From the IMG/VR virus record IMGVR_UViG_3300037722_000853, positions 1 to 53,903 of that record: a DNA stretch of 53,903 nucleotides; one strand, 5' to 3'. A program made the translations under genes and the position numbers. The DNA comes from a virus (taxonomy: Duplodnaviria; Caudoviricetes). Shown here piece after piece: positions 5,673 to 50,044 of the stretch (the stretch's first letter is position 1; each line of letters begins with the position of its first letter). The notes under the pieces were generated by a model. It searched no databases. It saw nothing but the letters and a program-made list of their open reading frames with translations, and was not told where the DNA came from.

Positions 5673-5718
5673 AAAAACAAAAAAGGCCAGTGACGATCCC
5701 GAGGATCGTCACTGGCCT
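5673..5718 (-). terminator. Intrinsic terminator directly upstream of the protease gene
   Basis: 16-bp stem AGGCCAGTGACGATCC/GGATCGTCACTGGCCT followed by TTTTTGTTTTT. Confidence 0.85.
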
Positions 5719-5729
5719 GTAGGGCTTCT
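5713..5729 (-). promoter_or_regulatory. AGAAGCCCT-AC-AGGCCA motif, copy 1
   Basis: Overlaps the terminator 5' arm; recurs at 14568-14585 and 50007-50024. Confidence 0.65.
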
Positions 5730-5763
5730 GGGTTAGATTGGTAAAAAGCTTCTTTATGCGGTT

Positions 5764-5860
5764 GTGCCCCGCGACTGACGCCGCGCATTGCGGATGTTAT
5801 CCGCGCTCTTTTCGGCGTCGCGCTCAGTGAGCGCCCACCCTGCCGTCGCTAGTCAGGCAC
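5764..5860 (-). ncRNA. Structured leader RNA (multibranch)
   Basis: GTGCC/GGCAC, GCGAC/GTCGC, GCGCTCA/TGAGCGC, GACGCCG/CGGCGTC and GCGGAT/ATCCGC pairings, starting at the predicted +1. Confidence 0.55.
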
Positions 5861-5866
5861 GCCATT

Positions 5867-5896
5867 AGTCTACAACGGCCGAAATGATTACGTCAA
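5867..5896 (-). promoter_or_regulatory. Sigma70-type promoter for the head operon
   Basis: TTGACG-18 nt-TAGACT. Confidence 0.65.
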
Positions 5897-5919
5897 GTTA
5901 GAAAGATGAGAAAAGCAAA

Positions 5920-6210
5920 TCAGTTCTTATTCAGCAGCTCAAGCTCGAAGTCTCCGCTCATCAACTTCACCTGGTTATTCATGAGTGTGATATTGTGCGC
6001 TTCCAGCCGGGCGATCTCCTCTTTGAGCTTGTCGATCTCAATCTGCACATGATTCCACTGCTTAACGACTCCTGTATTATAGCCCTGTGAATACTTCTTG
6101 CGGGCAAGGCTCTCCACTATCTGCACATCGGTCAACGGCCGGCCGTCTTTGTCGTGAGAATCTGCTCCTAATGCAATCGCTCGTTTGCTGGCTGCGCTTT
6201 GTTCCATCAC
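5920..6210 (-). CDS. Hypothetical protein (coiled coil)
   Basis: Coupled to upstream ORF; heptad C-terminus. Confidence 0.6.
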   Translation of the reverse strand: MMEQSAASKRAIALGADSHDKDGRPLTDVQIVESLARKKYSQGYNTGVVKQWNHVQIEIDKLKEEIARLEAHNITLMNNQVKLMSGDFELELLNKN

Positions 6211-6617
6211 TCGATCCCCGCCTCGGCCAGGATATTAAGCTGATTTTCTATTGGCTCACGAAAAGCCCGCTCGTAAGTCGATGTCCACTTCGGGATGATC
6301 GGATTCGGCCGTTCGGGATTATAGGCAGAATAAATTTTCCAGCCGTGCCGCAGAAAATGACTCGCTCTCATCCTGAGCCAGCCTCCGTCATATTCCTTTT
6401 TGAATTCATTCTGCCAGCGGACGCCGCCGGGCACAATGTCCCCCAACCGCCGCAAGTATTCCCGGTACCAGGCCATATACAACCCGCGCACTTCCTCCAG
6501 CCGCTGTCGCCGCGCCGCCTCACTCAGCCCCAGCGTCTCATCTTGAATATCGGCCGCCAGACTCAAAATGTCTTCAGCCCGCTTCACCAGGCTGCTTGTC
6601 TCTGTTTGGTTCATCAT
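6207..6617 (-). CDS. Hypothetical protein
   Basis: GAGGAG RBS, in operon. Confidence 0.6.
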   Translation of the reverse strand: MMNQTETSSLVKRAEDILSLAADIQDETLGLSEAARRQRLEEVRGLYMAWYREYLRRLGDIVPGGVRWQNEFKKEYDGGWLRMRASHFLRHGWKIYSAYNPERPNPIIPKWTSTYERAFREPIENQLNILAEAGIE

Positions 6618-6861
6618 TTCTCCTCGCCAGCTCGCGGTGCAGCGTAGTCATCAGCTCCAGTAGGTCCACCGGCACGGCCTGCCGGCCGCGATCCACCACC
6701 CTGAAGCGGTGCCGGTCCTTCACCTCCAGGATAATGCGGCCCTCGACGATACGGCCGTGCCCAATGCACAGCCCGTCCACATACACCATATCGCCCTCGC
6801 GCACATCAATCCGGTAATCCATTTGTTCCATAGTTCGCTTTGAAACGGCCGTTTTGTTCAC
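6574..6861 (-). CDS. Hypothetical protein
   Basis: Start/stop overlap with neighbour. Confidence 0.55.
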   Translation of the reverse strand: MNKTAVSKRTMEQMDYRIDVREGDMVYVDGLCIGHGRIVEGRIILEVKDRHRFRVVDRGRQAVPVDLLELMTTLHRELARRNDEPNRDKQPGEAG

Positions 6862-7178
6862 TTCCGAGCAACTATCTTTCGAGCCATGCCCGATTGCTCA
6901 ACAGCAGATCGCGCCAGCAGGATTATATTATCGTGAGCCATCTCAATGACTTCTGGTACGCTCAGACCGAACTCCTGCTCTGTAGTATCAGCATCGCCCT
7001 CGTCGCTGGTGGAATAATTAGCAATCTCCACCAGAGTGGCCAGTAACGGCGTCGCGCTTGCCTCGACCCACCGAACCAACTCGATAGCAAATGAGCCAGA
7101 ATCAACCCTGCACCCAGGCTGGCGTTTCTGGTGGCATACCTCACGCCATTTGTCACGGATTTCCTCCTCGGTTTTCAT
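6858..7178 (-). CDS. Hypothetical protein
   Basis: GAGGAGG RBS, ATGA overlap. Confidence 0.6.
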   Translation of the reverse strand: MKTEEEIRDKWREVCHQKRQPGCRVDSGSFAIELVRWVEASATPLLATLVEIANYSTSDEGDADTTEQEFGLSVPEVIEMAHDNIILLARSAVEQSGMARKIVARK

Positions 7179-7507
7179 TCATCCTCCTCGCACGTTTCAC
7201 ACACCCAGAAACGGCCGTGCCCCTGACACAACTCACAATCCGGCCGCGCCGCCAACCGGCACTCCGGGCACTCAATTTGTTTCACTGGCCCGCCGCAGCC
7301 ATCACACTCCGGCACCGGGGCCTCAATCGTGAAGCTGCCCAGCTGCGCGCCCTGCACCTCCACCAGCTCCGTCAAATAATCCGGATCATATGGAATCTCA
7401 CAGGCCAGCATCCGCTCCAGCTCCGCCATTGCTTTGGTGTAGTCCACATGCAGAGCCTGGGGAATTGGTCGCTTGCCGTTCATATCAGCCACCGCCCACC
7501 TCCGCAT
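7175..7507 (-). CDS. Cys-rich zinc-finger protein
   Basis: Four CxxC motifs (CDGC, CPEC, CELC, CETC). Confidence 0.6.
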   Translation of the reverse strand: MRRWAVADMNGKRPIPQALHVDYTKAMAELERMLACEIPYDPDYLTELVEVQGAQLGSFTIEAPVPECDGCGGPVKQIECPECRLAARPDCELCQGHGRFWVCETCEEDE

Positions 7508-7724
7508 CTGGTTCGTAATAAATCGGCATTATCTCGGCGACAGAAAACGAGGCGATTGCAGACAAACATTCCGGGCAACGGATATAACCAAACCGACTGA
7601 TTGATTCTAGCGGTAAATCTTTTATGCCGATCTCTCTCTGTACACTACACTCCGGGCAATACAGCCGGAGGGTCGTCGGTGGCCGGTTGCGCTTGATTAT
7701 CAATCCGCGTTCATCAGCGTTCAT
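7485..7724 (-). CDS. Small zinc-ribbon protein, Com-like spacing
   Basis: LYCPEC...IRCPEC; start overlaps the portal stop. Confidence 0.55.
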   Translation of the reverse strand: MNADERGLIIKRNRPPTTLRLYCPECSVQREIGIKDLPLESISRFGYIRCPECLSAIASFSVAEIMPIYYEPDAEVGGG

Positions 7725-7733
7725 CAGCGTCCC
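7702..7733. repeat. Decamer array, copy 2
   Basis: aatccgcgtt catcagcgtt catcagcgtccc; supplies the portal stop and the next ATG. Confidence 0.75.
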
Positions 7734-9376
7734 ATTCCCTTACCGGCCAGCTCCTCCAGCTCGCCCAGCAAATACTGCACCACGGCCGCATCGCCCAGCC
7801 GCCCCTCGCGCCAGTTGGCCATCACCGCCGCCAGCGCTTCAGGCAGGCGGGCCTCCGCCGCCCGCGCCACCGTAAAAATCTCGGCCGGGTTACGCACGCC
7901 AATTTTCTGCAAAGCCACCAGGTACAGCTGCCGCAATACCTCGCTGCCCACCGCCTGGTCCAGCACCCCGGCTGTTACGGCCGCCACCGTCTCGGTCATC
8001 AGCCGCGTCAGCTCCTCGATCAGCACAAACAGCGGCGTCTCCATCATGGCCACCACGGCCGCTTGTGGGTCCACGCCGCCGCCATTCTCCGCCCGCAGGA
8101 ACAAGACCACCTGCCCGATCTCCTCCAGCACCGAAGAAAGCCACAATTGGTAGCGCTCAATCTGCTGGTAAAACGGCGTTTTCATTTCCTCGGCCGTGGC
8201 CAACCCGCCGCTGATTGCATCAGGAAAACCCAGCCAATGCAGGCCAATGCCGGTGGCCACGCTCAGCTGGCCGCCCAACATACGGCCGTCAAAGCGGGCG
8301 CTGGCCGCGCCGGTATCGCGGGCCATCCACTCCCGGTTCACCGCCTCATTTTCAATCCAGTCAGAAGCGGCCGCTGCCGGCGGGTTGTTGTCGCGATAGC
8401 TGCTGCCCTGCACCAGGCCAGATTGCAGCCGGCTCTTAAACTGGCCCACCACCCGGCTGCCGCCGTCGATCTTCACCTTCTCGGTATACATCGCCGCCTT
8501 GCGCGCCACGGCCGCCCGGTCGCCCATAAAATCTTGCAGCACCGTGGCCCACTCAAACGCATTCAGAAACTGCGGCATCCCTCGGCCCAGTGTGTGGTTG
8601 CGGTTGCGCACCGCCCACATCGCCACCACCTTGGTCACGGCCTCGGGACGGCCGTTAATCTCCACCGTGCCATCGGCCAGCATATCAGCCCGGCGCGCCC
8701 CTCGCGGAATCGGCACCTGGCCCAGTTGGGCCTCGCTGGCCCGCCAGTCAGGGTAATACAGATCGCCCTTTGTGCTGCGCCGGTGGCGGTAAAAGAGCGG
8801 GATCGTCTGGCTGTCAGGGTCTTCCCAGATGATTTCCACCTGGTCGGTGGGGATGCGGCGGATCGTCGCCTCACCGTCCAGCGGCGAGTACCAGAAGGCA
8901 AACAGCAGCTCGCCTTCGTTCAGCGCGTCTTCGCTGCGTTCGTGCAAACTGCGCTGGCCGATGATCGGCGCGTTGCGCTGCGCCGTCCAGAATTCAGTCA
9001 GCAGGGTATTGGCGGCCGTGTCCTCACTGCGCAGCTGCACCCGCTGGCCCAAACCAAAGTCGGTCCAGATCTGCACCGCTTTTTCGATGTTGATGTTGGT
9101 ATCGGCCGTCCAGCGCGCCTGGCGAATGGCCAGGTTGCGGTCGCGCTCAGTAATGCGGAATCCCTGGCCAAAGGCCGCGCCCCGCGTGCGCATGATGAGG
9201 TCAATCAACTGGCCGTTTTCTTGCAGCATCTGCAAAACTTTTTCCGGTGGGGCGATGAGGCCGCCGCGCTGGTAGGCGTCTTCAAACACATTAACCATGC
9301 GCGTCACCTCGCGCATGTGGCGCGGGAATAGTTTTGGTAAGACGAAGTGATCGAGCCGTTCTCTAAGGGTTGGCAT
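7724..9376 (-). CDS. Portal protein
   Basis: 550 aa after terminase; EGELLF, RRIPTDQV, GRGMP and GGLATA motifs. Confidence 0.85.
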   Translation of the reverse strand: MPTLRERLDHFVLPKLFPRHMREVTRMVNVFEDAYQRGGLIAPPEKVLQMLQENGQLIDLIMRTRGAAFGQGFRITERDRNLAIRQARWTADTNINIEKAVQIWTDFGLGQRVQLRSEDTAANTLLTEFWTAQRNAPIIGQRSLHERSEDALNEGELLFAFWYSPLDGEATIRRIPTDQVEIIWEDPDSQTIPLFYRHRRSTKGDLYYPDWRASEAQLGQVPIPRGARRADMLADGTVEINGRPEAVTKVVAMWAVRNRNHTLGRGMPQFLNAFEWATVLQDFMGDRAAVARKAAMYTEKVKIDGGSRVVGQFKSRLQSGLVQGSSYRDNNPPAAAASDWIENEAVNREWMARDTGAASARFDGRMLGGQLSVATGIGLHWLGFPDAISGGLATAEEMKTPFYQQIERYQLWLSSVLEEIGQVVLFLRAENGGGVDPQAAVVAMMETPLFVLIEELTRLMTETVAAVTAGVLDQAVGSEVLRQLYLVALQKIGVRNPAEIFTVARAAEARLPEALAAVMANWREGRLGDAAVVQYLLGELEELAGKGMGR

Positions 9377-9596
9377 TTTCCACCTCCTCGCGGATCGCCT
9401 CTATACTGCTGTTCAGCAGCCAGCCAGCGGCGCGGATCAGCTGCACGGCCGTCCAATAGCGCAATTGATACCAGCGCGTGAGCTCGACCTGCACCGTTAC
9501 CGTCATATCGTTGCGCGGTGGCTTGTTCAGCTTCATCGTCACGGGCTTGACCTTCCAGCCGTGCGATGTTGTTGTGTACTCGTCAGATTCACTCAC
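9363..9596 (-). CDS. Hypothetical protein
   Basis: GAGGAGG RBS, overlapping junctions. Confidence 0.6.
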   Translation of the reverse strand: MSESDEYTTTSHGWKVKPVTMKLNKPPRNDMTVTVQVELTRWYQLRYWTAVQLIRAAGWLLNSSIEAIREEVENANP

Positions 9597-9930
9597 TGCT
9601 TACCTCCTCGGGCGCAGGTTGCCAACGGCCGTGAAACATCGCCACGGCCGCGCAAATCGCCGTCGCCAGGCTCGTGTGCCGAAAGGTGCTTACGTGTTCA
9701 CTATTCCACACAGACGCATAATGATCGCCCATTTCTACAGAATACCCCACCTGGTAATTCAGCGCCTTATCCCGCGCCATCCCGCCCCAGGCCAGGGCGT
9801 CGTTTTGAAAGTAAGGCGGTGGCAGCAGCTGCTCGCCTCCCAGGGGATCAATCCATTTACGGCCGCGCCGCCTCCAGCCAATGGCCAGAGCAAACGCCTC
9901 GTTGAGCTTCAGCTTTTCTTCATTGTCCAA
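9589..9930 (-). CDS. Phage ABA-sandwich-like protein
   Basis: ALAIGW...PPYFQNDALAW...LATAICAAV pattern; GGAGG before TTG at 9930. Confidence 0.5.
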   Translation of the reverse strand: MDNEEKLKLNEAFALAIGWRRRGRKWIDPLGGEQLLPPPYFQNDALAWGGMARDKALNYQVGYSVEMGDHYASVWNSEHVSTFRHTSLATAICAAVAMFHGRWQPAPEEVSSE

Positions 9931-9961
9931 ACCACACCTCCACACGTTCGCACGCAAACAT

Positions 9962-9998
9962 CATTAACCATTAACCATTTACAATTAACCATTAACCA
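9962..9998. repeat. TTAACCA heptamer array, copy 1
   Basis: 37 bp, 35/37 identical to 12544-12580. Confidence 0.85.
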
Positions 9999-10002
9999 CT
10001 AG

Positions 10003-11715
10003 CTATCTTCTGCGCCACCCGCCAATCCGCACCGGGTCATACACCTGGCGTACCAGCTCCTGCTGGCGCGGCTCAAACAAATAGTCCGGTGCCACACACA
10101 GCGCCAGGCCATCACCGTCATCCGGGCTGCGGCCGACCTTTTTCTTGAACTCGCCCTTGGGCCGCAATTTTTTCACATCATACCCCCGCGACTTCACCCA
10201 GCTAAACGGCCGTTCGCACAGGTCCGCCTCCAGCGCCTCGGGTGGATCGTCCAGCGCCAACGTGCGCAGCGCCTCGGCCGCGTGGTAATACATCTCGGTG
10301 ATGAGGTCGGTAAACGCCTCGATGTCATAAGGCACCGCCTGAAAATGCACCTCCTCCACCTCAAAAAAGTCAAACGCCTGGCGCAGATCCACGTCGGCCA
10401 GCAGCAAATCAACCACCCCGCCGCCAAAGCCACCGCTGCCATCGACGCGTACCACCAGGTCCGTCACCCCCAGCTTGTCCAGCCGCAGCGCCGCCGCCTT
10501 AATCGCCCGAAAATAAGCTCCTGTACGTCGCTTGCTCAGCACCGCCTCACGCCACACACGGCCGTTATGCCGCACATACACCGTGCCAAAGTCGCTGCCA
10601 AAGCGGGCTGCATCGACGCCGATCCGGGCAATGGTAGGGAACTCGCCGCCGTGCCTCCGACCCTTCGCCGCCTCGTACCGGCCGACTGAACAAAACACGT
10701 CGTCCACAATGTTGGCCGGGGCAATGCCCAGCACCCGCCAGAAAAAAAGCGGCTTCGGCCGGTAAATGATGCCCGGCCGCCAGGTCAGCTCAAAGGTAAA
10801 CTCTTCCTCCTCGTGGGTGTTTACCCGCTCGCAGTATTCCGCATTGTCGGCCCGCCGCTCCACCCACTCCCGCGTCGCCGCGCCGGGGATCACCTGACGG
10901 CCGCTCACCACGTTGGGGTGATCCAGGGTGCTGATGCGAAAAGAGCGTACGTACGGCAGCGCCGCCAGCTTGTGGAAACGGCTGCGCCGGGTGCGCGGGT
11001 TGGCCAGCAGCAGCACAATCACCACCACGCCGGTATCCATCCCTTCCAGCGCCTCATACACAAAATCTGCCACGCCCTCGGCCTCATCGAGGATGAACAT
11101 CAGATACGGGTGATGCTGGCCATGCAGCCGCTCGATGCCGCTGTCGTTGCTGTTATCCGTGGCCCGGCCGACGGCAAAATGGTCGGCCGACTCCTTCAGT
11201 CGTGGAATCTCCAGCACCCGGCCGGGCAAGTTGCGTTCGCCGCCCCGGTCGTTGCGGATTTCCTTCCAGAGTAAATCGTTAATCTGCTCGGCGCTGGGGG
11301 CAAACGTGTAAATAATGCTGGGGAAGCAGTCAAAGAATTGGCTAAACAGGCCGCTGGCCAATTTCGTTTTGCCCACCAGGTTGCCCGACTCCACCCGGAT
11401 CCAGTTTTGGATCAGCTGACCCGGCCGCCAGACTGTTAGCTCGTCGAGGTTCCTCTCGCCCTGCTCGTAGGCGTTTTTCTCCAGCTGCTGCCGGATGGCC
11501 AGGGTATAGGCGTCAATCACCTCCATCTGGCCCGGTTTCTCCTCGCTGCCGCGCCACGGTTCCCAGCCCAGCTCCTGGCGAATGTAAGCGGCCGGGTCCA
11601 GCCGGTATTTGTCAAAGCGCCCCTTCTTGCGCTTGCTGGCCCGCGTTTTCACCCGCGCCACCTGCATCTGCCGGTAGGCTGCCGGCGAAAGGAGGGATTG
11701 CCAATCGACCGTCAC
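10003..11715 (-). CDS. terL: Terminase large subunit
   Basis: Walker A SGNLVGKT, Walker B FILDEA, LANP, nuclease IGVDAARFGSD and SPDDGD. Confidence 0.92.
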   Translation of the reverse strand: MTVDWQSLLSPAAYRQMQVARVKTRASKRKKGRFDKYRLDPAAYIRQELGWEPWRGSEEKPGQMEVIDAYTLAIRQQLEKNAYEQGERNLDELTVWRPGQLIQNWIRVESGNLVGKTKLASGLFSQFFDCFPSIIYTFAPSAEQINDLLWKEIRNDRGGERNLPGRVLEIPRLKESADHFAVGRATDNSNDSGIERLHGQHHPYLMFILDEAEGVADFVYEALEGMDTGVVVIVLLLANPRTRRSRFHKLAALPYVRSFRISTLDHPNVVSGRQVIPGAATREWVERRADNAEYCERVNTHEEEEFTFELTWRPGIIYRPKPLFFWRVLGIAPANIVDDVFCSVGRYEAAKGRRHGGEFPTIARIGVDAARFGSDFGTVYVRHNGRVWREAVLSKRRTGAYFRAIKAAALRLDKLGVTDLVVRVDGSGGFGGGVVDLLLADVDLRQAFDFFEVEEVHFQAVPYDIEAFTDLITEMYYHAAEALRTLALDDPPEALEADLCERPFSWVKSRGYDVKKLRPKGEFKKKVGRSPDDGDGLALCVAPDYLFEPRQQELVRQVYDPVRIGGWRRR

Positions 11716-12464
11716 TCGCCACCCCGCTTGATGCCGGCCCGCTTAAAGATGGCGGCCGCCAGCTCGTCGCCGAATTCGGCGATCACATCGTCCGGCTCTA
11801 TCTCATTCTTGCGCAGCAGCGCGGCAATCTCATCGTGCATTGTCAGGTGCACCCGGTCGCTGTCCATGTCCAGCGAGCGCCGCCCCAGCTTGCTGGCTGT
11901 ATCCATGATCGCGGCCGTATCTCGAAACTTCCAATCGGCCGGCTTCAGCACCCGCCGGATGATAATACGGCCGTCGTCGTCCTCTTCCTCGGTCTCCTCT
12001 TCCAGTCGCTCCACCGGGAAGCGCAGCATCGCCTCCACTTTTTTACTCAGGGCCATCGCCGCGCCGTACTCCATCTCCCGAATCTGCTGCTCGCGGTAGG
12101 CCAGCTTGCGCCCAATTTTATTCTCCACATAGGCGCGGGTCAGCCGGGTCACGGCCGTCAACACCGCCTGGAACAGCTCATTGTGGTACCAGTCCTTGTC
12201 GGGGTTGTAGTAGGCGCTTTTGCTCACGCAGTCGCGCCGCTCCAGCACCTGTTTGATCGTGGCCCCGGTGGTCACCTCCGACCAGGCCAGGTGCCAGATC
12301 GTGTTCCTGCGTTTCTGCCACAGCGGCATGTCGCGCAGGGCGGCCAGCTCGGCATCAACGGCCGTCAGGTAAACACGCCAGGCGTCCCTATCTTGCTCGT
12401 CTGGCGTATCGTCGAACTCCACCCAGGTAATGTCAGTCACGGCCGCGGTCACGATTGCGCACAC
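11712..12464 (-). CDS. Putative terminase small subunit
   Basis: Coupled upstream of terL; helical; start uncertain. Confidence 0.55.
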   Translation of the reverse strand: MCAIVTAAVTDITWVEFDDTPDEQDRDAWRVYLTAVDAELAALRDMPLWQKRRNTIWHLAWSEVTTGATIKQVLERRDCVSKSAYYNPDKDWYHNELFQAVLTAVTRLTRAYVENKIGRKLAYREQQIREMEYGAAMALSKKVEAMLRFPVERLEEETEEEDDDGRIIIRRVLKPADWKFRDTAAIMDTASKLGRRSLDMDSDRVHLTMHDEIAALLRKNEIEPDDVIAEFGDELAAAIFKRAGIKRGGE

Positions 12465-12543
12465 CCCCCTACCCTATTCGTGTAGTAATCCCTCGCGATC
12501 TCAACTAAAAACAAGCCACAGAGGCGGGTCATGAGGCACCGCC

Positions 12544-12580
12544 CATTAACCGTTAACCATTTGCAATTAACCATTAACCA
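12544..12580. repeat. TTAACCA heptamer array, copy 2
   Basis: Encodes the methyltransferase C-terminus MVNG and its stop. Confidence 0.85.
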
Positions 12581-13442
12581 TTTTCCCCAGCCATCCCACG
12601 GCCGTCGCCACCGCCGTCGCATCGTCATCCACCCCTACGGCCGGACGGCCTAGCTGCACCGCCTCCACCAGCGACGTGCCCGCTCCGCAAAAAATATCAA
12701 CCACCGCATCACCCGGCCGCGTATGCTGCTGGATAAAGCGCCGGGGCAGCATCCGCGGGAAACTGCCACCCTCGACCCGCGGCCGTCCCTGGTCGCCGCT
12801 GCTGCTGAAGCGCAATACGTTGCCCTGGCGCGCCCCCTCTGGGTGCAGCCGGGCGTGGCCGTTGGCCAGCTTGCCCAGCACGTCAGGCTGGCGCGGGTTG
12901 CCGTTTTTGTTTTTGGCAATGGTTTTGGGGGAATACGGCCGTCGCACCGGCCGGTAAAAATAGTGGTGACTGCGGGCAAACACGGCCGCAATTTCCCATT
13001 CATCCCGGTCGTGGCGTTTGTGGTTTCCGGCCGGTGGGGCGTTGAGCTTGTCCCAGATGTAGAAATCGACCGGCAGCAGGCCATGCTGCTCGCCAATTTC
13101 GTGGATGAGCAGCAGCTGATCCACGTCAAACCAGCCGTCGGTGGTACGGCCGTATTTGTAAACCAGCACGATGACGCCAGTTCGGGGATTGATCTTCGGC
13201 GCCCAGGCCGCCAGGCGCTCGTGCAGCCAGGCGTGGTAAGCCGCGCCGCTGAGATCGAAACCATGCAGGCCGGGGTATGGCGGCGAGGTGAGGAGGAGCT
13301 GGAAACGGCCGTCTTCGTAGCAGTCGGCAATGGTCAGGCAGTCAGCCTGCCACACCGTCCAGTTGTCGGCCTGGTACATTGGCGGCCCCGCCTCCCCTAT
13401 TCCGGTCAAGTCAAGTGTGTGGCTCGGTGAATCTGGCTTCAT
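12567..13442 (-). CDS. Beta-class amino (N4-C/N6-A) DNA methyltransferase
   Basis: TSPPY motif IV precedes DIFCGAGTS motif I; YIWDK. Confidence 0.9.
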   Translation of the reverse strand: MKPDSPSHTLDLTGIGEAGPPMYQADNWTVWQADCLTIADCYEDGRFQLLLTSPPYPGLHGFDLSGAAYHAWLHERLAAWAPKINPRTGVIVLVYKYGRTTDGWFDVDQLLLIHEIGEQHGLLPVDFYIWDKLNAPPAGNHKRHDRDEWEIAAVFARSHHYFYRPVRRPYSPKTIAKNKNGNPRQPDVLGKLANGHARLHPEGARQGNVLRFSSSGDQGRPRVEGGSFPRMLPRRFIQQHTRPGDAVVDIFCGAGTSLVEAVQLGRPAVGVDDDATAVATAVGWLGKMVNG

Positions 13443-13637
13443 ATGGCCTTCAAAATCCCAAAAAGCGAGTACCACCCCAGTCCCACTTGTGTGCTATTTA
13501 CAGGAGACTCACGGCGCGCTCGCTGTGCGTTACCTATGCGAAACATTTCTAACTACTGCTATTTTATGCTATCACAAACGGGCGGCCGAAATATGAGAAA
13601 GGGTGGTTGATTTTTGGGGATGTGGCAGGCTGTGGCA

Positions 13638-13672
13638 AAAGGCCCCGGCCGGGTGTGGGGTTCGGCCGGGGC
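13638..13672 (-). terminator. Terminator after the membrane protein gene
   Basis: GCCCCGGCCG/CGGCCGGGGC stem then CTTTT. Confidence 0.6.
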
Positions 13673-13700
13673 GAGGGGAAGCCTTCAGGGGGAACGGTCG

Positions 13701-14564
13701 TTACTCCAGCGTGATCGTCCAGTCGCCTACCGCAATCACCTCGATAATGATTGTGTTACTGTCCAAGCGCACGGTGCCCTCATACGAATCGGTAGTGTTA
13801 ACCAGCAGTTCGCGGCCACTGCCGTAACCAAAGACAGCAAAGTGCCGCTCGCCGGCGTTGCCGGTGATGGTGGCCCGGCTGGGCGCTCCAACCAGGGCAA
13901 AGACATAGTTACCGCTGCCAGAAACTTCACCCGGCACATCTACACGCTCAATGGTACCCAGCGGCCGTACCTCAATCGTCCACGCGCCGGTGGCCGTCAC
14001 TTCAAAACCGGCCGTGTGTTCGTCGCTCAAAAAGTCCAGCGGCATCAGGCCGGTGAAGGGATCGGTCGTGTTAACCAGTAAATTGATCGTCTCCCCGCTC
14101 GCATCATAGTTCGTCACGGCAAAATGACGCCCGCCGGCATTGCCACTCACATACACCAGCGCTGGCTCGGCGCCCTTCTCGATGTCTACCAGGTCATCCC
14201 CTGACCCTTCCAGGATGATCGGCTCTGGCGTGTTGGTCGGTGTGGGGACAGGGGTGTTGGTGGGTCTGCGCGTGGGGGTATTCGTTGGCTCTGGCGTGTT
14301 GGTCGGTTCGGGTGTATCGCTGGGCTCTGCGGTATTTGTTGGCTCCGGGGTATCGGTGGGCGACGCGGTCGCCTCCTCCACAACGGTCTGCGCTGAGCTT
14401 GTCAAGGAGGCCGCTTCCTCCCCCTCCCCCACTTCAGCCACGGCCGTAGCTTCGCCCGTTTCCGTGTCGGGCAGCAGTAGGCCCAAAACAAAAAGCCCGG
14501 TGCAGCACAGGGCCAAAAACCCTACCACGCCGAGCACAACCTTGCGCCTGCTTAAATTTTTCAT
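13701..14564 (-). CDS. Membrane-anchored surface protein (superinfection-exclusion-like slot)
   Basis: N-terminal TM with CC, PTNTPE linker, two repeated beta domains (RHFAV...LLVNTTD..TG...AxGxWTI). Confidence 0.75.
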   Translation of the reverse strand: MKNLSRRKVVLGVVGFLALCCTGLFVLGLLLPDTETGEATAVAEVGEGEEAASLTSSAQTVVEEATASPTDTPEPTNTAEPSDTPEPTNTPEPTNTPTRRPTNTPVPTPTNTPEPIILEGSGDDLVDIEKGAEPALVYVSGNAGGRHFAVTNYDASGETINLLVNTTDPFTGLMPLDFLSDEHTAGFEVTATGAWTIEVRPLGTIERVDVPGEVSGSGNYVFALVGAPSRATITGNAGERHFAVFGYGSGRELLVNTTDSYEGTVRLDSNTIIIEVIAVGDWTITLE

Positions 14565-14567
14565 ATT

Positions 14568-14585
14568 CGCCTCCTCAGGGCTTCT
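14568..14585 (-). promoter_or_regulatory. AGAAGCCCT-GAGG-AGGCG motif, copy 2 (covers the RBS)
   Basis: AGAAGCCCTGAGGAGGCGAATATG. Confidence 0.55.
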
Positions 14586-14723
14586 GGCCGACACGAGATC
14601 GGCCTGTGAGCAACTGGCAATAAGCGGCACCTTACCCCGACTGGCTTACGGGTGAGGTTAAGAAGCCGGCCATCACGCGGCTGGTAATTTGCAACGAGTT
14701 TCCGAAATCAGTACCCGCGGCCG

Positions 14724-14752
14724 TTGACAGATTTCGATTGATCGACTACACT
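14724..14752 (+). promoter_or_regulatory. Sigma70-type promoter
   Basis: TTGACA-17 nt-TACACT. Confidence 0.75.
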
Positions 14753-14759
14753 GTCGCTC

Positions 14760-15005
14760 ATGTCGTTAAATTCACCTACACTTATCAGGACAGTAAATAT
14801 GGTTGAAGAGAAAAGGTTCTCGACCGCAGAGGCCGCTGAACGTCTTGGAGTTGTCCAACGCACGATTCAGCGCTGGTACGAACAAGGGGAATTTCCCAAT
14901 GCCCGGCCAAAGAGCCCTACTCCTCGAAGCCCAATCGTGATCCCCGAATCTGATATTGCAGCCTTTGAGCAGCGACGCGACGCCGCAGGCCCGCAACCTA
15001 ATTAG
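14760..15005 (+). CDS. Excisionase-like MerR/HTH_17 protein
   Basis: FSTAEAAERLGVVQRTIQRWYEQGEF...IPESDI; next to attP; start is 14760 (leaderless) or 14799. Confidence 0.8.
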   Translation: MSLNSPTLIRTVNMVEEKRFSTAEAAERLGVVQRTIQRWYEQGEFPNARPKSPTPRSPIVIPESDIAAFEQRRDAAGPQPN

Positions 15006-15013
15006 TTAAAATT

Positions 15014-15052: not shown

Positions 15053-15127
15053 TTAGTGATGAACGTTAACAACTGAATATTTCCCTTTTCCAGTCGCCAA
15101 CCCCACCACCTGACGTGATGAACGTCA

Positions 15128-15217: not shown

Positions 15218-15813
15218 CACCTGGAGATCGCGGGCTGCGCTCAGAGCGCCAACGGCCGTATCCAACGGCCGCCAACAGGCTGCACCAAACAAGTATCATA
15301 ACCTTATTTTGGAATTATTTCTATTTTTCTTAGCATCAACGGCCGCACAACCGGCCGTCATGCAGGGCAGCGGGCACCATCTTCCGGGTAAACCGAATCA
15401 GGTGTAACAAACCTCCTTACGCGATTGGATACGAGAACCCTCTCAACGATGCTCAACTTCAAGTCCCGCTGTCCTCCTCTTTTTTTTGGTTCAATCGGCC
15501 GATTTGCGTTCGCCTGCGTTGGCTCCGCCAACAACAACGCCACCCGGCCGTGAGAATACCCTCCAAACGCACCGGGGCGGATCGGCGCATACATGCGCCC
15601 CCCCGGTGCCTGGGGTTTTTATTTGTTCACTCCGGGCCAGGTCGATTCTCCGAGCGCCTGGTCCGCTGGGATATTCTTCTCTCCTAAGCCGGCGGTCGTT
15701 GACCGGCCGCCGGCAACCTTTCGGAATCCTCGCCCAAGGGGCGTCGATCTGGTTTGGCCGTTTCCGTGCCTAAAAACGGCTACCTCGTTTATGACTGATT
15801 CTAGGAGGTGAGC

Positions 15814-22211: not shown

Positions 22212-22622
22212 ATGAAAAACATCTTATCCACTGTATTACTCGTTCTATTGGCCCTCGTCGCCGCCGATCTCTTCCTCAACGACGGCCGCGCCCTGGCCAG
22301 GCTGGCCAACAGTGCCGGCGAGGCAACGGCCGTCATTGATACGGCCGTCCAAAACCAGAACCTGCAAAATACAATCATCCAGGTTGTGGTCACGGCCACA
22401 ACCGAACGGATACCAGCCGCGGCCAGCGCCACAGCGCCGCCTGCGGCAACCCCCACCTCGCCGCCGACCAATTTCAACGCCACAGCTACGGTATTTTTTA
22501 CGCCGCCAACGGCAACCTACAGTCCGGTGTTGATCGCCATCCCTTTGGCCACGCCAAGAATTGGCTGTCAAGGCGGCCGCAGCTGCCCGCGGCCGACGGC
22601 AACGGCCGCACCAGGACGGTGA
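22212..22622 (+). CDS. Membrane-anchored Pro/Thr-rich protein
   Basis: N-terminal hydrophobic helix, PT-rich body. Confidence 0.7.
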   Translation: MKNILSTVLLVLLALVAADLFLNDGRALARLANSAGEATAVIDTAVQNQNLQNTIIQVVVTATTERIPAAASATAPPAATPTSPPTNFNATATVFFTPPTATYSPVLIAIPLATPRIGCQGGRSCPRPTATAAPGR

Positions 22623-36309: not shown

Positions 36310-36337
36310 GTCAAATATTCTTTTGTTAAAGTTCACA

Positions 36338-36361
36338 GCCCGGCACCCCGCCGGGCTTTTT
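36338..36361 (+). terminator. Terminator between convergent units
   Basis: AGCCCGGC/GCCGGGCT then TTTT. Confidence 0.65.
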
Positions 36362-40035: not shown

Positions 40036-40046
40036 CACAATCTCCT

Positions 40047-40112
40047 TTATGTAGAGTTACGCACGGCCGTGTTGACCGCAGCTAAAAATGTTCCATTTGC
40101 TAAAACGTCCAT
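40047..40112 (-). CDS. 21-aa ORF upstream of the holin
   Basis: GGAGG RBS; MDVLANGTFLAAVNTAVRNST; stop overlaps the holin RBS. Confidence 0.35.
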   Translation of the reverse strand: MDVLANGTFLAAVNTAVRNST

Positions 40113-40153
40113 TTGCAAATCCTCCGTGTAGATAAATAGATGCCTAAAAGCCA

Positions 40154-43091: not shown

Positions 43092-43094
43092 GGT

Positions 43095-45299: not shown

Positions 45300-45313
45300 T
45301 GTCAATCCTCCGT

Positions 45314-46510
45314 CTAAATGCCCACATAAATATTCCTCCACACCAGCCGCGCCGCACTCACCCCCACCAGGCCGCCGCTAAAGGCAATCTGAATCTGGTT
45401 CACCCGATTGGGCGCCACCGGCGGCGGCTCGATGCCGAATAGGGCCAGGTCGCCGCTGACGTAGGGCATCAGGTTCACCCCAGCGCCGTTACTCACTGTC
45501 AGGTCCAGCGTATTGATAATCACCGTCTCCCCGCTGGCCGCATCATAATCCAGCACAATCTGCCGGCCGGTCCCTAAATGAGTCACCGAAGGATCGCTGG
45601 CCGGGCCATCGACATACACCACCGGCCGCGCCCGCCGCGTGCCCCAATAGGTAATATCCACCGTTTCACCCACCGCCCCGGCCACAAACGCCCAACGCCC
45701 GTTGCCTGTCGTCCGGCCGAACCAGGCCCCAGACCCATCAAACACCAGGTCGCCTACATTGTCAGGAATCACCCAGGTCTGACTCTGCTCCGCGCCATAC
45801 CAAAACGGATCATGAGCCACAAAACGCAGCGCCTCGCGGTAGCCCTGCGGGTAAAACGTGCCCGGCCCAGGGCCGGTATCAAACTGCGGCCCCTGCTCCA
45901 GCAGGCAAAAAATGTCTCGGAACGCTCGCTTGCGTGTGTAGCGCCAGGCCCCGGCCGTGGTTGTCGCCCCGGCATAGGCCGCCGCCAGGATGACGGTGAA
46001 ATCATTCGGCACGCTGCCCACCGTATAATCCACCCCCTCAATGGTGATGCGGCCGCCCGCCTCCAGGCCGCCCTGGTGCAGGAAACGGCCGCTGGCACTC
46101 GTCGCCGTCGTGCCGCCGTTGCTCACCACCAGGTCGCTGCCCCGCTCAACCTTGCCGCCCGGCAGCCACTTGCGATACACCAGCGGGTACACAATGCCCT
46201 CAAAGGATCGTGACGGCCGTAACAAATCCAACAGCCAGTTGCGCCGGTCCCACAGGGTCGTGCGGTGGGCCAGCTGCTCGGCAATCACAATCTGGAAGGT
46301 GCGTGTATCCCAACGCATGTCCAGCGGCGTCTCCCCATCCTGGTACGGGCCACGCTGGGTAATAAAATGCAGCGGTGCCATACCCTGGTTGCGCGCCTCA
46401 CGCAGCTTGCGCGGGTTCAGGCCGAAGAGGTTCAGCAGCGAATACGGCCGGTATGTCCCGCCGCCGTTGGGCACTAAAATCTGGTCGCCTTCAGTCAGTC
46501 CGTCGATCAT
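45314..46510 (-). CDS. Distal tail protein (Dit) with inserted domain
   Basis: Directly after tape measure; RGPYQDG, FVAHDPFWY, ARPVVYVDGP. Confidence 0.75.
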   Translation of the reverse strand: MIDGLTEGDQILVPNGGGTYRPYSLLNLFGLNPRKLREARNQGMAPLHFITQRGPYQDGETPLDMRWDTRTFQIVIAEQLAHRTTLWDRRNWLLDLLRPSRSFEGIVYPLVYRKWLPGGKVERGSDLVVSNGGTTATSASGRFLHQGGLEAGGRITIEGVDYTVGSVPNDFTVILAAAYAGATTTAGAWRYTRKRAFRDIFCLLEQGPQFDTGPGPGTFYPQGYREALRFVAHDPFWYGAEQSQTWVIPDNVGDLVFDGSGAWFGRTTGNGRWAFVAGAVGETVDITYWGTRRARPVVYVDGPASDPSVTHLGTGRQIVLDYDAASGETVIINTLDLTVSNGAGVNLMPYVSGDLALFGIEPPPVAPNRVNQIQIAFSGGLVGVSAARLVWRNIYVGI

Positions 46511-49326
46511 CGGCTCGCACTCTCCATAAAGGCAAATTCCAGCGCCAGGCCGCCCGGCTGGGTTGTGCTCTGGGTTGTCAGGTTAAACTGCCGGTTGTCC
46601 TGGTTGATGTTTGTCGCGCTGCTGCCACCCACCCCCGGCGGAGCAATAGACGAGACGCTGGCCATCATGTCTGACATTGGCGGCAAATCAAACCCGACGC
46701 GCAAGCGGGGCAGCTCCACCTGGCTAAGATGCCGCATCGCCTCACTGATGTAATTGAGCGAGTGGTACAGCGGCGGCGGGCTATCACCCTTCATCCACTC
46801 CGGCACCTCCACGTTCTGCAGCGCGGCCGTCACGTCATCAATCCAGCCCTTCAGGACGCTGAAGGCATCAGATATATAGCCCAACGAGCGCTGCAAATCC
46901 GCCAGCGCCCCATCCACAAAACCCTGGATGATCGGCTGCACCTTGTCTTTGATGAACTCCCACACGGCCGTCAGTACCGGCAAAATCTTTTCATCAAACA
47001 GCCGCCACGCCTCCTGCAGCGCTGGCTGCAGCACGTTTTGCCAGATGCCGGCAAACACCGTCAGCGCCAGGCCAAACACCGTATCCAAAAATTCCTGAAT
47101 CGATTTCAGCAGCGGAAAAACACTTTCGTTCAAAAATTCCCAAACTATCTCCAGCGCCGGTTGCAGCGTGTTCTGCCAGATGTCGCTCAGTTTCTCGGTG
47201 CCTTCGGCCAGCTTCACCGCCAGCCAGTCGCGCACCGTCTCAAAAATCGGGATCACATTGTCCTGAATAAATGCCCACACCGTTTCCAGCGCCGGTTGCA
47301 GCGTGCCCGTCCAAAAACTCACCAGCGTCTCCACCGCCACCGGAATATGCTCAATCAGCCAGCTTACCAGCGTGCCCAGCAGCGGGATGAGCGTCTCGGC
47401 CATAAACTGACCCACGGCCGCCAGCGCCGGGGCCAGGTACTCATTCCACATCCGCGTCAAAAACTCAATCGCCGGCGGAATCACCTCCTGCAGCCAGCTC
47501 CACAACCCGGCCAGCGCCGGTTGCAGTTTCGTTTCCCACTGCTCCACCAGCGAATTGATCACCGGCAGCAAATAATTGTTGAAATAATCCGTGGCAATCT
47601 GGATGGCCAGCGGCAGCGCCAGCTGCAACCATTCGCCAAACTGAGCCAGCACCGGCAAAATGTTTTCCTGGATGAAGGCCCGGGCGTTCTCAAAGGCGGG
47701 CAGCAGCGTGCCCTCCCAGAAGCCCACGGCCGTTTCAATCCCGCCTGGCAAATCGTTAATGAAAAAGTTCACGATGCCTTCAAAAATTGGCGGCAGCTCC
47801 TCGCTGAGGAAGGTCCCCAGACGGCCGAACATCGCCTCAATCTGCGGCCCGTGCTCTTCGATAAACCCGGCAAAACCCTGCACCATTTCGGTGAGAACGG
47901 GCAGGAATTTTTCGCCGATGGCTATCTTGAGCGTTTCGACCGTGCCCCTCATGGCCTCTAGTTGACCATTGTAGGTGGCCGTTCGAGCCGCCATCTGCTC
48001 CTGAAGCGTAGCCGCCTCGGCTGTGGCGGCCGTCATCTCCTCGTACCCTTCTGTGCCCTCCTCCAGGAGACTGATGAGCGCGTTTTTGCCATAGCTGCCA
48101 GCGAGTGTTTGTATATACTCGTTACGCTCGGCCTCCGTGAGCTGCTTGGTTGCCGTTGTTGCCTCACCGGTGATGCTCTCTAGCTGAGCGATTTCGGCAT
48201 TGGCGGCCGCCTGCTGCGTGATGTATTTCTCCAGTTGTTTGTCAGAAAGAACACTAATGCCCGCGCTGTGCTTATACAGTGCGTCGGTGGCCTGCTGGTA
48301 GGCACGCTGCGCCAGGTCGAGTTGGTGGTTTTGCTCGGCCGTGCGGCCGCCAACAACTACAGTCACCTCAGAGACGCCATAGAGCGCTTTTTCCATATCG
48401 GCCAGAATGTCTGGCCACTCCCGCATATTGCCCTCGGCGTCGTACAATTCCACCCCCAGCTCGTTAAGCGCGCCGGTTACCTGAGCAGTTGGTCGCGTGA
48501 GATTGGTGAACATCGATTTCAGCTGCGTCCCGGCCTCGGCTCCCTTAATCCCCCGCGTACTCAAAATCGCCAGAAACGCGTTTGTCTGCTCGATGGGGAT
48601 ACCCGCTGCCGCTGCCGATGGGCCAACGTTCCGGTAAGCCTCAGCCAGATCGTTAACTTCGGCATTGCTGGCATCGGCCGTTTGGACAATGTTATTCATG
48701 GCCTGGTTGAGGAATTCGGCTCGCTCGGCCTCCGTCTCCAACTCGCCCCCCCAGGTGGCAAGCACAACGGTCGATAACTCGGCAGCCTGCGCCTGATCTA
48801 GCGTGCTGGCCGCAGCCAAGTCGATGGCCGCCCGTACCGCACCGCCCAGCTCGGCCGTCCCGGCCATATAGCCATTGAGGTCGCCAAACATCTCGCCTGT
48901 ACTCATGCCGCTCTTGGTTAAAATAGTCATCACTTCAGCGGCGTCAGAGGCGGAGGCTCCCACTAGCTGGGTATCCCCCCCCACCTTTATTGCAATATCG
49001 TGGTAATCATCAAAAGCCAGATTGCTTCCCCGAGCAGCCACTTCCAGAATTGCCATCTGCTCCTGGAAGTCGGCGGCCATGCCCACACTCTCGGCCGTCA
49101 CCGCCACCAGCCCCTCGCCCATGCGTACCAGCCCCTCCACCACCAGCTCAATCCCCCGCGCCGCCAGGTTGCCCAACGCTACCGTAGCAATACCGGCCGC
49201 GCCGCTCATGCCGCCCCAGCTTTTCTCAGTACCGCCAATCGCCCGGTCCATGTCGTCCATCTGCGACATGAAGCGACGAAAGCCTTCAACGGCAACCTCC
49301 AGCCCTAGCTCCTCGGTTTCGGCCAT
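46507..49326 (-). CDS. Tape measure protein
   Basis: TP901-type core (GIKGAEAGTQLK) and 11-residue W/F repeats. Confidence 0.93.
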   Translation of the reverse strand: MAETEELGLEVAVEGFRRFMSQMDDMDRAIGGTEKSWGGMSGAAGIATVALGNLAARGIELVVEGLVRMGEGLVAVTAESVGMAADFQEQMAILEVAARGSNLAFDDYHDIAIKVGGDTQLVGASASDAAEVMTILTKSGMSTGEMFGDLNGYMAGTAELGGAVRAAIDLAAASTLDQAQAAELSTVVLATWGGELETEAERAEFLNQAMNNIVQTADASNAEVNDLAEAYRNVGPSAAAAGIPIEQTNAFLAILSTRGIKGAEAGTQLKSMFTNLTRPTAQVTGALNELGVELYDAEGNMREWPDILADMEKALYGVSEVTVVVGGRTAEQNHQLDLAQRAYQQATDALYKHSAGISVLSDKQLEKYITQQAAANAEIAQLESITGEATTATKQLTEAERNEYIQTLAGSYGKNALISLLEEGTEGYEEMTAATAEAATLQEQMAARTATYNGQLEAMRGTVETLKIAIGEKFLPVLTEMVQGFAGFIEEHGPQIEAMFGRLGTFLSEELPPIFEGIVNFFINDLPGGIETAVGFWEGTLLPAFENARAFIQENILPVLAQFGEWLQLALPLAIQIATDYFNNYLLPVINSLVEQWETKLQPALAGLWSWLQEVIPPAIEFLTRMWNEYLAPALAAVGQFMAETLIPLLGTLVSWLIEHIPVAVETLVSFWTGTLQPALETVWAFIQDNVIPIFETVRDWLAVKLAEGTEKLSDIWQNTLQPALEIVWEFLNESVFPLLKSIQEFLDTVFGLALTVFAGIWQNVLQPALQEAWRLFDEKILPVLTAVWEFIKDKVQPIIQGFVDGALADLQRSLGYISDAFSVLKGWIDDVTAALQNVEVPEWMKGDSPPPLYHSLNYISEAMRHLSQVELPRLRVGFDLPPMSDMMASVSSIAPPGVGGSSATNINQDNRQFNLTTQSTTQPGGLALEFAFMESASR

Positions 49327-49335
49327 CGGCTCCCC

Positions 49336-49899
49336 TTAGCCCTCGCCCTCTGGCTGCGCAGGTGTGGATACGGCCGTATGGCCATTAGCCTGAATTGCCT
49401 TCAACTGCGCCTCCAGCTCGGCAATGCGTGCCGCCTGACCATTGGCCAGCTGCTTCGTTAGTTCGGCAATCGCCTCACTGCCGGGAGCTGGCTCCGCAAC
49501 GGCCGTTTTCTTCTCCGGGAAACTGATCGCCATCACCCGGCCGATCAGCTCGCCGCGCTCCTGCTGCGTGGTAATCGTGCGGATCCAGTTGGCCCGGCGC
49601 AGGTGCGGCTTGTCGGCGGCCGTATCAGCGCTGCCAGCGCCCCCCAACAGTTCCATCAGTTCATTAGCCTTATCCGGTGGATTGGTCACTACCCCCCACC
49701 CGGCACAGTAGGTGAATAGTTTGCCCGTCGCCGCCAGCGCCTGCACCTGCTGCGCTCCTTGCAGCTGTAGAATCCGCTCTGGCTGGCGAATCAACGCCAT
49801 ATCGCCGAATTCCAGCATCAAATCCTGTAGAATCGTTTCCTGTACCGCCTGGAGATGCAGCGTCACGCCGCAGTTGAGGATCATCACATCGTTATTCAT
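49336..49899 (-). CDS. Putative tail assembly chaperone
   Basis: Immediately before tape measure. Confidence 0.5.
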   Translation of the reverse strand: MNNDVMILNCGVTLHLQAVQETILQDLMLEFGDMALIRQPERILQLQGAQQVQALAATGKLFTYCAGWGVVTNPPDKANELMELLGGAGSADTAADKPHLRRANWIRTITTQQERGELIGRVMAISFPEKKTAVAEPAPGSEAIAELTKQLANGQAARIAELEAQLKAIQANGHTAVSTPAQPEGEG

Positions 49900-49940
49900 G
49901 GCTGCTATCGGCCTCCGCGCCCGGCAAAAAACCGGGCATT

Positions 49941-50014
49941 AAACAAAAAGAGGCCATCAGCCTGCTGCAACGCTTCGCTTATGCTTCACGTTCGCGCGCA
50001 AACCAATGGCCTCT
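49941..50014 (-). terminator. Terminator-like stem with large loop
   Basis: AGAGGCCAT/ATGGCCTCT then TTTTGTTT. Confidence 0.6.
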
Positions 50015-50024
50015 CAGGGCTTCT
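50007..50024 (-). promoter_or_regulatory. AGAAGCCCT-GAG-AGGCCA motif, copy 3
   Basis: Overlaps the 5' arm of the stem, as in copy 1. Confidence 0.65.
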
Positions 50025-50044
50025 CTTTATGTCGCGTTGTTAAT

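Follow-up and report, generated by a model that had tools for sequence, protein, structure and literature searches.

What does a short motif do that stands three times between the genes of one phage, twice at a terminator and once at a ribosome-binding site (RBS)? The motif, AGAAGCCCT-N2-4-AGGC, occurs in IMG/VR record IMGVR_UViG_3300037722_000853 (Duplodnaviria; Caudoviricetes), whose positions 1 to 53,903, the whole stretch of DNA analysed, are called the window here. We tentatively read it as the part that stays conserved at the foot of intrinsic terminators belonging to one small family of relatives; these terminators may form a conditional stop before the late structural genes, the stop being relieved by a factor that holds the base of the stem open.

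The motif matches the window at 5715-5729 (site 1), 50009-50024 (site 2) and 14569-14585 (site 3), all three on the minus strand and all intergenic, and shuffled sequences gave no match at all (0 of 100; mean 0.00). This bears out the earlier note on this DNA, made from the letters alone, which had reported three such copies. The exact 9-mer AGAAGCCCT is found three times against 0.37 expected, a count reached by none of 100 shuffles; once a single mismatch is tolerated the count (9) is no higher than expected (9.9), so it is the exact copies alone that are remarkable. The same note had placed a further string, ACAAC-N2-4-CATAAAGA, ahead of sites 1 and 2, and it does occur there and nowhere else in the window (5751-5765 and 50024-50040; no match in 100 shuffles). 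Every copy of the motif is on the transcribed sense strand and overlaps either the 5' base of a terminator stem (sites 1 and 2) or a Shine-Dalgarno sequence (site 3). This is the geometry expected of an RNA site whose occupation blocks terminator closure or ribosome binding. The motif is missing from the three other terminator-like sites that were read in the window, two on the plus strand (15601-15615 and 36337-36357) and one on the minus strand, a hairpin after gene 13701-14564 (at about 13650).

At site 1 the half-site AGAAGCC, a CTAC spacer and the half-site AGGCCA follow one another (5713-5729, minus strand). AGGCCA (5718-5713) opens a perfect 16-bp stem (5718-5684) with a 3-nucleotide (nt) loop, followed by TTTTTTGTTTTT (T6-G-T5); the hairpin folds at -30.9 kcal/mol and is called terminator B below (5673-5718, minus strand). 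That the AGGCCA half begins a stem with a T-tract behind it, before the head genes at site 1 and before the chaperone/tape-measure genes at site 2, had been claimed beforehand and is what we find. Behind terminator B come an RBS (GGAG, 5670-5667) and the ATG (5658) of a scaffold/protease-like gene (4303-5658, minus strand), so that the terminators sit 15-20 nt before this gene, with the capsid genes after it. The terminator itself stands as it had been described, but it is not simply an inter-operon one, since it lies 3' of a conserved promoter-like site and a structured leader. Read in the direction of transcription, the site 1 cassette consists of a sigma-70-like promoter, a leader of about 100 nt, a terminator A, an unpaired stretch, terminator B, and the RBS and scaffold gene.

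How old is this arrangement, and which of its parts are held constant? Relatives were retrieved with the scaffold/protease protein, and the intergenic region of five genomes, the window and four relatives, was aligned. The relatives are G001, a complete phage of 100 kb that has terminal repeats (scaffold/protease identity 72%); a 10-kb fragment handled as G002, L005 and L010 (79%); and two metagenome contigs, L011 (76%) and L013 (77%). The order of the cassette is kept in all four.

The putative promoter, TTGACG-N18-TAGACT (5867-5896, minus strand), is aimed at the terminators and the head genes. Its TTGACG and TAnnCT hexamers are kept in all four relatives, including G001, where the flanks cannot be aligned, and 91 of 120 positions of the segment are identical between the window and the relatives. 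Just 5' of the -35 hexamer stands an element TTTCTCATCTTTC (5901-5913, minus strand), which is kept in L005, L011 and L013 and not in G001; the window holds one more copy, at 13588-13600, both matches being intergenic and on the minus strand (2 of 100 shuffles also reach two). The leader RNA (5764-5860, minus strand) is closed by a helix GUGCC/GGCAC. It is present in the window and in three of the four relatives and deleted in L013. Its junctions GACUAGCGACG, CGCCGAAAAGAGC and GUCGCGGGGCA are invariant, while two hairpins come and go as whole units from genome to genome. The closing pair is seen as G-C, G-U and A-U, and one pair is changed on both sides, which over four sequences is thin covariation support. 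The whole window has no match in Rfam 15 at the gathering score, and a relaxed search with the leader and terminator region of the window and of L011 gave weak matches far below the gathering scores. A pattern for the leader core found only two of the known relatives in IMG/VR, and 20 chance-looking matches in genome_contigs (185,579 species genomes), none of them leader-like beyond the pattern. A riboswitch was considered for the leader and rejected: it belongs to no known family, and inspection revealed no alternative pairing of the closing helix with terminator A.

All four relatives carry both terminators, and their eight units fold at -14.7 to -50.4 kcal/mol with tails of T5-T7. The form of an intrinsic terminator, a G+C-rich hairpin and a U-tract, is therefore found at sites 1 and 2 and in the eight units of the relatives; site 3 is without such a hairpin. 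In the window, unit A is a remnant (5741-5765, minus strand; ACAACCGCATAAAGAAGC joined to TTTTTAC), its hairpin having been lost, so that CATAAAGAAGC is now joined to TTTTTACC. The hairpin is present in all four relatives, where it folds at -14.7 to -17.1 kcal/mol, and the remnant is closer to the window's own site 2 than to the A units of the relatives. Between A and B runs the conserved unpaired stretch TTACCAAYCGATACCC. Because the RBS lies within about 15 nt of the T-tract of terminator B, no promoter can lie behind that tract, and transcripts from the conserved promoter must accordingly pass the terminators to reach the scaffold and capsid genes.

Three further observations touch this place in the genome. 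Between the scaffold gene and the next gene (4232-4302) there is a hairpin GGCCAG-GGGA-CTGGCC whose stem base is that of terminator B; it lacks an upstream half-site and a T-tract. In a distant relative, L045 (5000-5141), the sequence TTGACA-N17-TATACT with an upstream TG precedes a leader of about 50 nt, after which come the hairpin CCCGCTCC..GGAGCGGG and, immediately ahead of the scaffold gene, a T-rich run; this architecture of near-consensus promoter, hairpin and T-rich run matches site 1, and the sequence is unrelated. Two other distant relatives, L040 (7399-7522) and L041 (7385-7517), have at the place of the cassette, directly before the scaffold gene, an open reading frame (ORF) of about 40 residues that is rich in Arg and Gly (MATRRGSAGRGSRGSCGG...).

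The terminator units share one form: RAAGCC, a spacer of 4-5 nt, and AGGCCA opening the stem. It is seen in five B units, four A units and site 2, and in 10 of these 10 AGGCCA is at once second half-site and stem base. The two half-sites make an imperfect direct repeat, 9-11 nt apart; site 2 (GAGAAGCCCT/GAGAGGCCAT) and the A unit of L005 (GAAGCCACT/TAGGCCACT) are examples. Identity was counted by segment between the window and the four relatives, with the four-fold degenerate sites of the capsid gene as neutral reference (0.54-0.62 identical). The first half-site is identical at 30 of 32 positions, the spacer with its flanks at 35 of 36, the second half-site at 35 of 36, and the 3' stem base with the T-tract at 48 of 48. 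The upstream unpaired block follows with 56 of 68, and the upper stem and loop come to 33 of 84 (39%). The stem base is thus invariant and not covarying, and the interior of unit B is a hairpin of anything between 35 and 81 nt. The four A units keep both halves invariant and differ in the spacer (ACTCT, ATATT, ACATT, ATTTA). Invariant halves together with variable spacers and interiors indicate that it is the sequence of the stem foot that is conserved, and not merely its pairing. Three different terminators hold the half-sites in the same register, with stems that begin GGCCAC (A), GGCCAG (B) and GGCCAT (site 2). Conservation of the motif in relatives, on which the earlier proposal could be judged, holds for site 1 (four of four relatives, above neutral) and fails for site 2 (none of one) and site 3 (none of two).

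What of those two sites? Copy 2 (50009-50040, minus strand) includes an upstream string of the unit A type, ACAACGCGACATAAAGA, and its half-sites GAGAAGCCCT and GAGAGGCCAT form a 10-nt direct repeat. The site 2 terminator (49941-50015, minus strand) is a long hairpin GAGAGGCCAT...ATGGCCTC followed by TTTTTGTTT (T5GT3); the region folds at -60.7 kcal/mol (z score -4.96), and a second hairpin lies at about 49919-49937, between this terminator and the RBS of gene 49336-49899. The homologous place in G001, the single relative in which it could be compared, has neither motif nor T-tract. Copy 3 (14569-14585, minus strand) has its second half within the Shine-Dalgarno sequence GGAGG (14574-14570) of gene 13701-14564, 5 nt before the ATG at 14564; the claim that the motif covers this element is correct. 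The gene encodes a Pro/Thr-rich protein with a signal peptide. Copy 3 agrees with copy 2 at 16 of 17 positions, with one indel. In L010 (CCCAGGAGGCGATCATG) and G001 the site 3 motif is absent and the RBS is plain, and in G001 the gene is inverted.

Searches elsewhere gave a similar picture. In G001 the motif is confined to the A and B units before the scaffold gene, and 11 more distant relatives (scaffold identity 34-52%; 128 kb in sum) have five matches to the pattern, none adjoining a terminator. A strict pattern of motif plus terminator found G002 only in IMG/VR; a relaxed one found 17 loci, two of them known relatives and the rest unrelated terminators or coding-like contexts, a number in line with our own rough estimate of about 10 chance matches. 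The cassette is thus confined to a small clade, and sites 2 and 3 are particular to the window genome. Among RNA runs none was listed as matching 2000-9500, and contigs of four DNA runs aligned to 5400-15000 gave short pieces only, with nothing among the matches listed that bears on 5713-5729 or 14569-14585. No paper describing the motif was found in literature searches that were not aimed at the sequence itself, and we make no claim that it is absent from print.

Pieces of the cassette recur in the window. The strings TTTCTCAT..ATTTCGGCCG that flank the promoter have a second copy at 13583-13600, which is in neither L010 nor G001 and which looks like the head promoter region minus its -35 part. 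Likewise TTTCTCATNTTTC followed by ATTTCGGCCG stands at two places only (5876-5913 and 13583-13600), both intergenic on the late strand, before the head promoter and before the methylase/terminase genes. With one mismatch allowed ATTTCGGCCG, which contains the palindrome CGGCCG, has 30 matches against 6.1 expected (30 is reached in 0 of 100 shuffles), on both strands and mostly within genes. The pieces seem to have been copied within the lineage of the window.

How might such a foot work? At site 1 a sigma-70-type promoter would fire into the structured leader and then into one terminator (two in the relatives). A promoter before a terminator implies conditional termination, and because of this order transcription of the head genes from that promoter would need relief of termination. 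A trans-acting factor, of the phage or of its host, would bind the nascent RNA at RAAGCC and AGGCCA, 9-11 nt apart. As the foot of the 5' arm is itself the second half-site, the bound RNA would be unable to form the final 5-6 base pairs beside the U-tract, and this would abolish termination whatever the strength of the upper stem. In the window genome the same site would have been copied to the terminator before the chaperone/tape-measure genes, and at the third copy, over the Shine-Dalgarno sequence of the secreted-protein gene, binding would block translation instead. That sequence and not structure is conserved at the stem foot and the upstream half-site in three terminators favours recognition of each terminator by the factor. 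What the analysis shows directly are sequences, folds and the pattern of conservation; promoter activity, termination, the existence of the factor and the direction of regulation are all things that we infer. A fuller proposal is that this is a previously undescribed late-gene switch, in which a factor reading RAAGCC-N4-5-AGGCCA at terminator feet turns on head and tail genes, shuts off the secreted-protein gene through its Shine-Dalgarno sequence, and is coupled to a new class of leader RNA; we regard it as possible, and as doubtful. An activator site was also considered and rejected, as after no copy is there a -10-like hexamer at a usable distance or room for one before the start codon.

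Several points weigh against terminator-foot recognition. A regulon of three sites rests on one genome, sites 2 and 3 being missing in the only comparable genomes, so that the claim that one protein controls all three can hold for the window genome at most. L005, L011 and L013 are mutually close, which keeps the counts of conservation from being independent of one another. Pairing of the half-sites with each other (GCC/GGC, 3 bp) would give a small hairpin that is no match, by itself, for a terminator. The shared flanks could have been inherited through duplication of the whole terminator module. The window and G001 have the cassette in common and almost no non-structural genes: ORFs 6574-6861, 9589-9957 and 30543-30968, the secreted-protein gene and a few weak matches. 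Finally, Pfam and/or PHROGs searches of about 60 window ORFs found no Q-, N-, ANTAR-, CAT/PRD- or Com-type protein, a negative that is weak for Q, as Q21-like folds can escape sequence profiles.

The geometry has known counterparts. In antitermination of the ribonucleic antiterminator (RAT)/BglG-LicT, ANTAR and PyrR types a recognition element overlaps the 5' arm of a terminator and the bound protein prevents the stem from closing. The likeness to BglG/LicT and ANTAR lies in that overlap, which here has the same geometry at three terminators. Where those systems have a 29-nt imperfect hairpin or paired hexaloops, the window has a pair of short half-sites in direct repeat; its setting is that of phage late genes, and no CAT/PRD, ANTAR or PyrR domain is found among its Pfam-scanned ORFs.

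Could RNA polymerase instead be modified once, at the promoter (as by Q) or by the leader (as by HK022 put), and then ignore A, B and site 2, the motif being an inherited flank? We consider this unlikely, although several features speak for such processive antitermination. The lambdoid PR'-tR' plan likewise sets terminators close behind a late promoter and upstream of late genes, the stretch from promoter to terminators is occupied by a conserved structured leader, and site 2 is downstream in the same direction of transcription. In the Bartonella gene transfer agent (BaGTA) a constitutive promoter and a leader terminator control the capsid operon, with a Q21-like protein, BrrG (10.1101/2024.11.20.624540). 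The BaGTA P_bgtA-K with BrrG and the lambdoid PR'-qut-tR' with Q thus share with site 1 a constitutive-looking promoter that runs into a terminator before capsid or late genes, so that these are expressed only when termination is relieved. Here, however, there are two tandem terminators and a structured leader of about 100 nt, and no protein of the Q-lambda, Q82 or Q21 families was detected in the ORF set searched. The nut form of lambda N, a boxA and a boxB hairpin (5-bp stem, GNRA-like pentaloop) downstream of a promoter, is likewise lacking: only a 3-bp GCC/GGC stem with variable loops of 5-7 nt is possible. L013 keeps the promoter and both terminators without the leader. Each terminator also has a conserved stem-base sequence to itself, a feature for which a processive system has no need. 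A single modification of polymerase leaves unexplained the invariant stem bases and upstream half-site amid variable spacers and upper stems, as well as the copy at an RBS without a terminator (site 3).

A second possibility, which we also think improbable, is that the cassette is a gene for a small non-coding RNA of about 190 nt (longer or shorter in the relatives), with ACCAAYCGAUACCCAGAAGCCCU as a seed or protein sponge and the head genes reached by residual read-through. The unit does have its own promoter, a structured 5' domain, an A/U-rich linker, a conserved unpaired stretch and a strong terminator with a U-tail. A motif at the Shine-Dalgarno sequence of a target, with copies on a small RNA, recalls the CsrA/CsrB arrangement. 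Against a small RNA, sites 2 and 3 are in the same sense and so cannot pair with it, the only near-complement in the window is an 8/9 match inside the tape-measure gene, and each RNA would hold only one or two copies of the motif. Nor does any promoter follow the unit, which stands 15-20 nt ahead of the gene block to which the capsid gene belongs. Published phage transcripts count both for a small RNA and, as a precedent alongside BaGTA, for the conditional stop proposed above: terminators inside 5' untranslated regions (UTRs) are common in Pseudomonas phages, where 42 were located, 34 of them bimodal (short or full-length transcript), and abundant short transcripts from such terminators are on record (10.1101/2023.10.13.562163). 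Those terminators, found by ONT-cappable-seq, lie like ours immediately 3' of a phage promoter; they were mapped by experiment and a shared motif goes unmentioned in the part of the report consulted (10.1101/2023.10.13.562163), whereas the evidence for a conserved motif here is comparative.

Does the motif need a role in RNA at all? Pieces of the cassette could have spread by recombination, or the direct repeat could be the site of a DNA-binding repressor that acts as a roadblock, an origin at DNA level that we hold to be quite unlikely. In its favour, three other places in the window hold fragments of the cassette (13583-13600, site 2 and site 3), L010 and G001 lack all of these copies, and the half-site spacing of 9-11 nt, about one helical turn, suits one face of the DNA. 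Neutral copies, however, would not hold the half-sites at 94-97% where silent sites are about 60% identical; no promoter lies 3' of any copy for an activator to serve; and a role in RNA predicts just such an overlap with the stem base as is constantly seen, in three different terminators. Mycobacteriophage stoperators, start-associated sequences and T4-type promoter/stem-loop cassettes are short asymmetric repeats in one orientation, intergenic or at RBSs, and the cassettes spread within a genome. In contrast to these, the present motif has three copies only, is tied to terminator stem bases and has no known link to a repressor.

The last rival is the one the earlier note had proposed, that a Com-like zinc-ribbon protein encoded at 7485-7724 (minus strand, 79 residues) opens both terminators and blocks the RBS. 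The ORF does read LYCPEC...IRCPEC, with two CPEC pairs, and the gene is 1.8 kb upstream of site 1. The account given of Mu Com also agrees with the consulted part of the published one, in which a small phage-encoded CxxC protein recognises a small bipartite RNA motif next to a hairpin, a repeat of GAGNNCC with the SELEX (systematic evolution of ligands by exponential enrichment) motif NGAGNNCC(N)2-3GAGNNCCNN (PMC6483171). Site 2 resembles this loosely, reading GAG-N3-CC-N2-GAG-N3-CC, but the Com spacing GAG-N2-CC is not found there, and nine of ten other motif copies are without the GAG pattern: the target form matches neither site 1 nor site 3 nor the A units. Com, moreover, opens a hairpin over a start codon to activate translation of mom (PMC6483171) and is not known to act on terminators. 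The ORF has no match to Pfam Zn_ribbon_Com (PF10122) even at E <= 1, its best Pfam matches being unrelated zinc-ribbon models below their cut-offs. It is an orphan, with no relative among 5.8 billion proteins and, among 1.84 billion representatives, a single match to a 487-residue repeat protein (E 1.2e-4). Nor does it travel with the motif, as had been suggested it might: it is missing at the syntenic place in two of the three relatives that keep the motif (L005/L010 and L013), where the portal is directly followed by a 106-residue protein with four CxxC pairs, a homologue of window 7175-7507, and there is no room for it. A weak look-alike occurs in G001, 34% identical over 50 residues (pairwise E 1e-7). 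A small CxxC protein follows the portal in every genome where the slot is visible; that these proteins are one family was considered and rejected, their mutual similarity being too weak. With neither family, target spacing nor distribution in its favour, control by this protein is very improbable, and the controlling factor is probably not the nearby zinc-ribbon protein.

Is there a better candidate for the factor? ORF 6574-6861 (minus strand) encodes a small Arg-rich protein of 95 residues (85-95 in the genomes), and it is the only small gene between portal and scaffold that is kept in all four cassette-bearing relatives (49-69% identity). It was not found by tblastn in seven more distant relatives. 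This co-occurrence is confounded by relatedness, and we treat it as a co-occurrence lead only. The protein belongs to no Pfam or PHROG family and is matched by two database proteins; its AlphaFold2 model has a pLDDT (predicted local distance difference test) of 60.6, with no PDB fold match at E <= 0.001 and no usable Atlas match.

The record is classed as linear, with a CheckV completeness of 72%. Its ends are alike, 1-236 and 53247-53482 being 95% identical and 392-847 and 53487-53903 83% identical, and it has the appearance not of a fragment that is 72% complete but of a circularly permuted genome, about 53 kb in size, whose closure fell on a strain variant or diverged repeat. In the complete relative G001 the genes keep their order across the end junction, and the left-end head genes thus lead on, without a change of strand, to the tail genes of the right end. 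The minus-strand late module comprises the large terminase (10003-11715), the portal (7724-9376), six small ORFs between 5920 and 7724, the scaffold/protease-like gene already described and the major capsid gene (2135-3223); towards the other end of the record come a BNR-repeat protein (50810-52276), ORF 50106-50747, ORF 49336-49899 and, adjoining it, the tape measure (46507-49326). ORF 49336-49899 has no relatives in IMG/VR. The capsid has none in genome_contigs, and no host was therefore identified.

Other features of the late module may be mentioned. The protein encoded at 50810-52276, of 488 residues with BNR/Sortilin-type repeats, belongs to the tail module and is 83% identical in G001. 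Small late proteins at 384-785 and 53479-53841 start with a Pfam E3_binding (peripheral-subunit-binding) domain (E 4.6e-11), which recurs in two G001 genes (22336-22437 and 24089-24160). Long palindromes of CGTGAAA heptads with a 20-bp stem (50751-50802 and 50045-50103) flank ORF 50106-50747; they are not present in G001 and may be processing or stabilising hairpins for that ORF alone. Runs of ATGGTTAA (GGTTAATGGTTAAT) are found at 9958-10002, directly 3' of the large terminase, and at 12465-12490, directly 5' of ORF 11712-12464, and GCAAATGG repeats in another late intergenic region (40039-40153); both could be binding sites of terminase or other proteins and are candidates for this. In the plus-strand block, an actin-like (ALP_N / MreB-like) protein at 24649-25653 suggests plasmid-like segregation, and the 410-residue ORF 33562-34794 matched no integrase family.

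Late-gene timing in the many uncultivated phages is little understood beyond the lambdoid Q and N systems, and the site 1 cassette offers a compact and testable element, a 17-nt site and a terminator. Its pattern of conservation points to sequence-specific control of single terminators rather than to processive modification of RNA polymerase. If this is true, phages would provide an instance of recognition at the foot of a terminator, together with a regulatory part that is small and portable and a structured leader RNA of a new kind; should the motif be only an inherited flank, the cassette would still be a clear comparative example of the premature terminators that phage transcriptomes now show in 5' UTRs.

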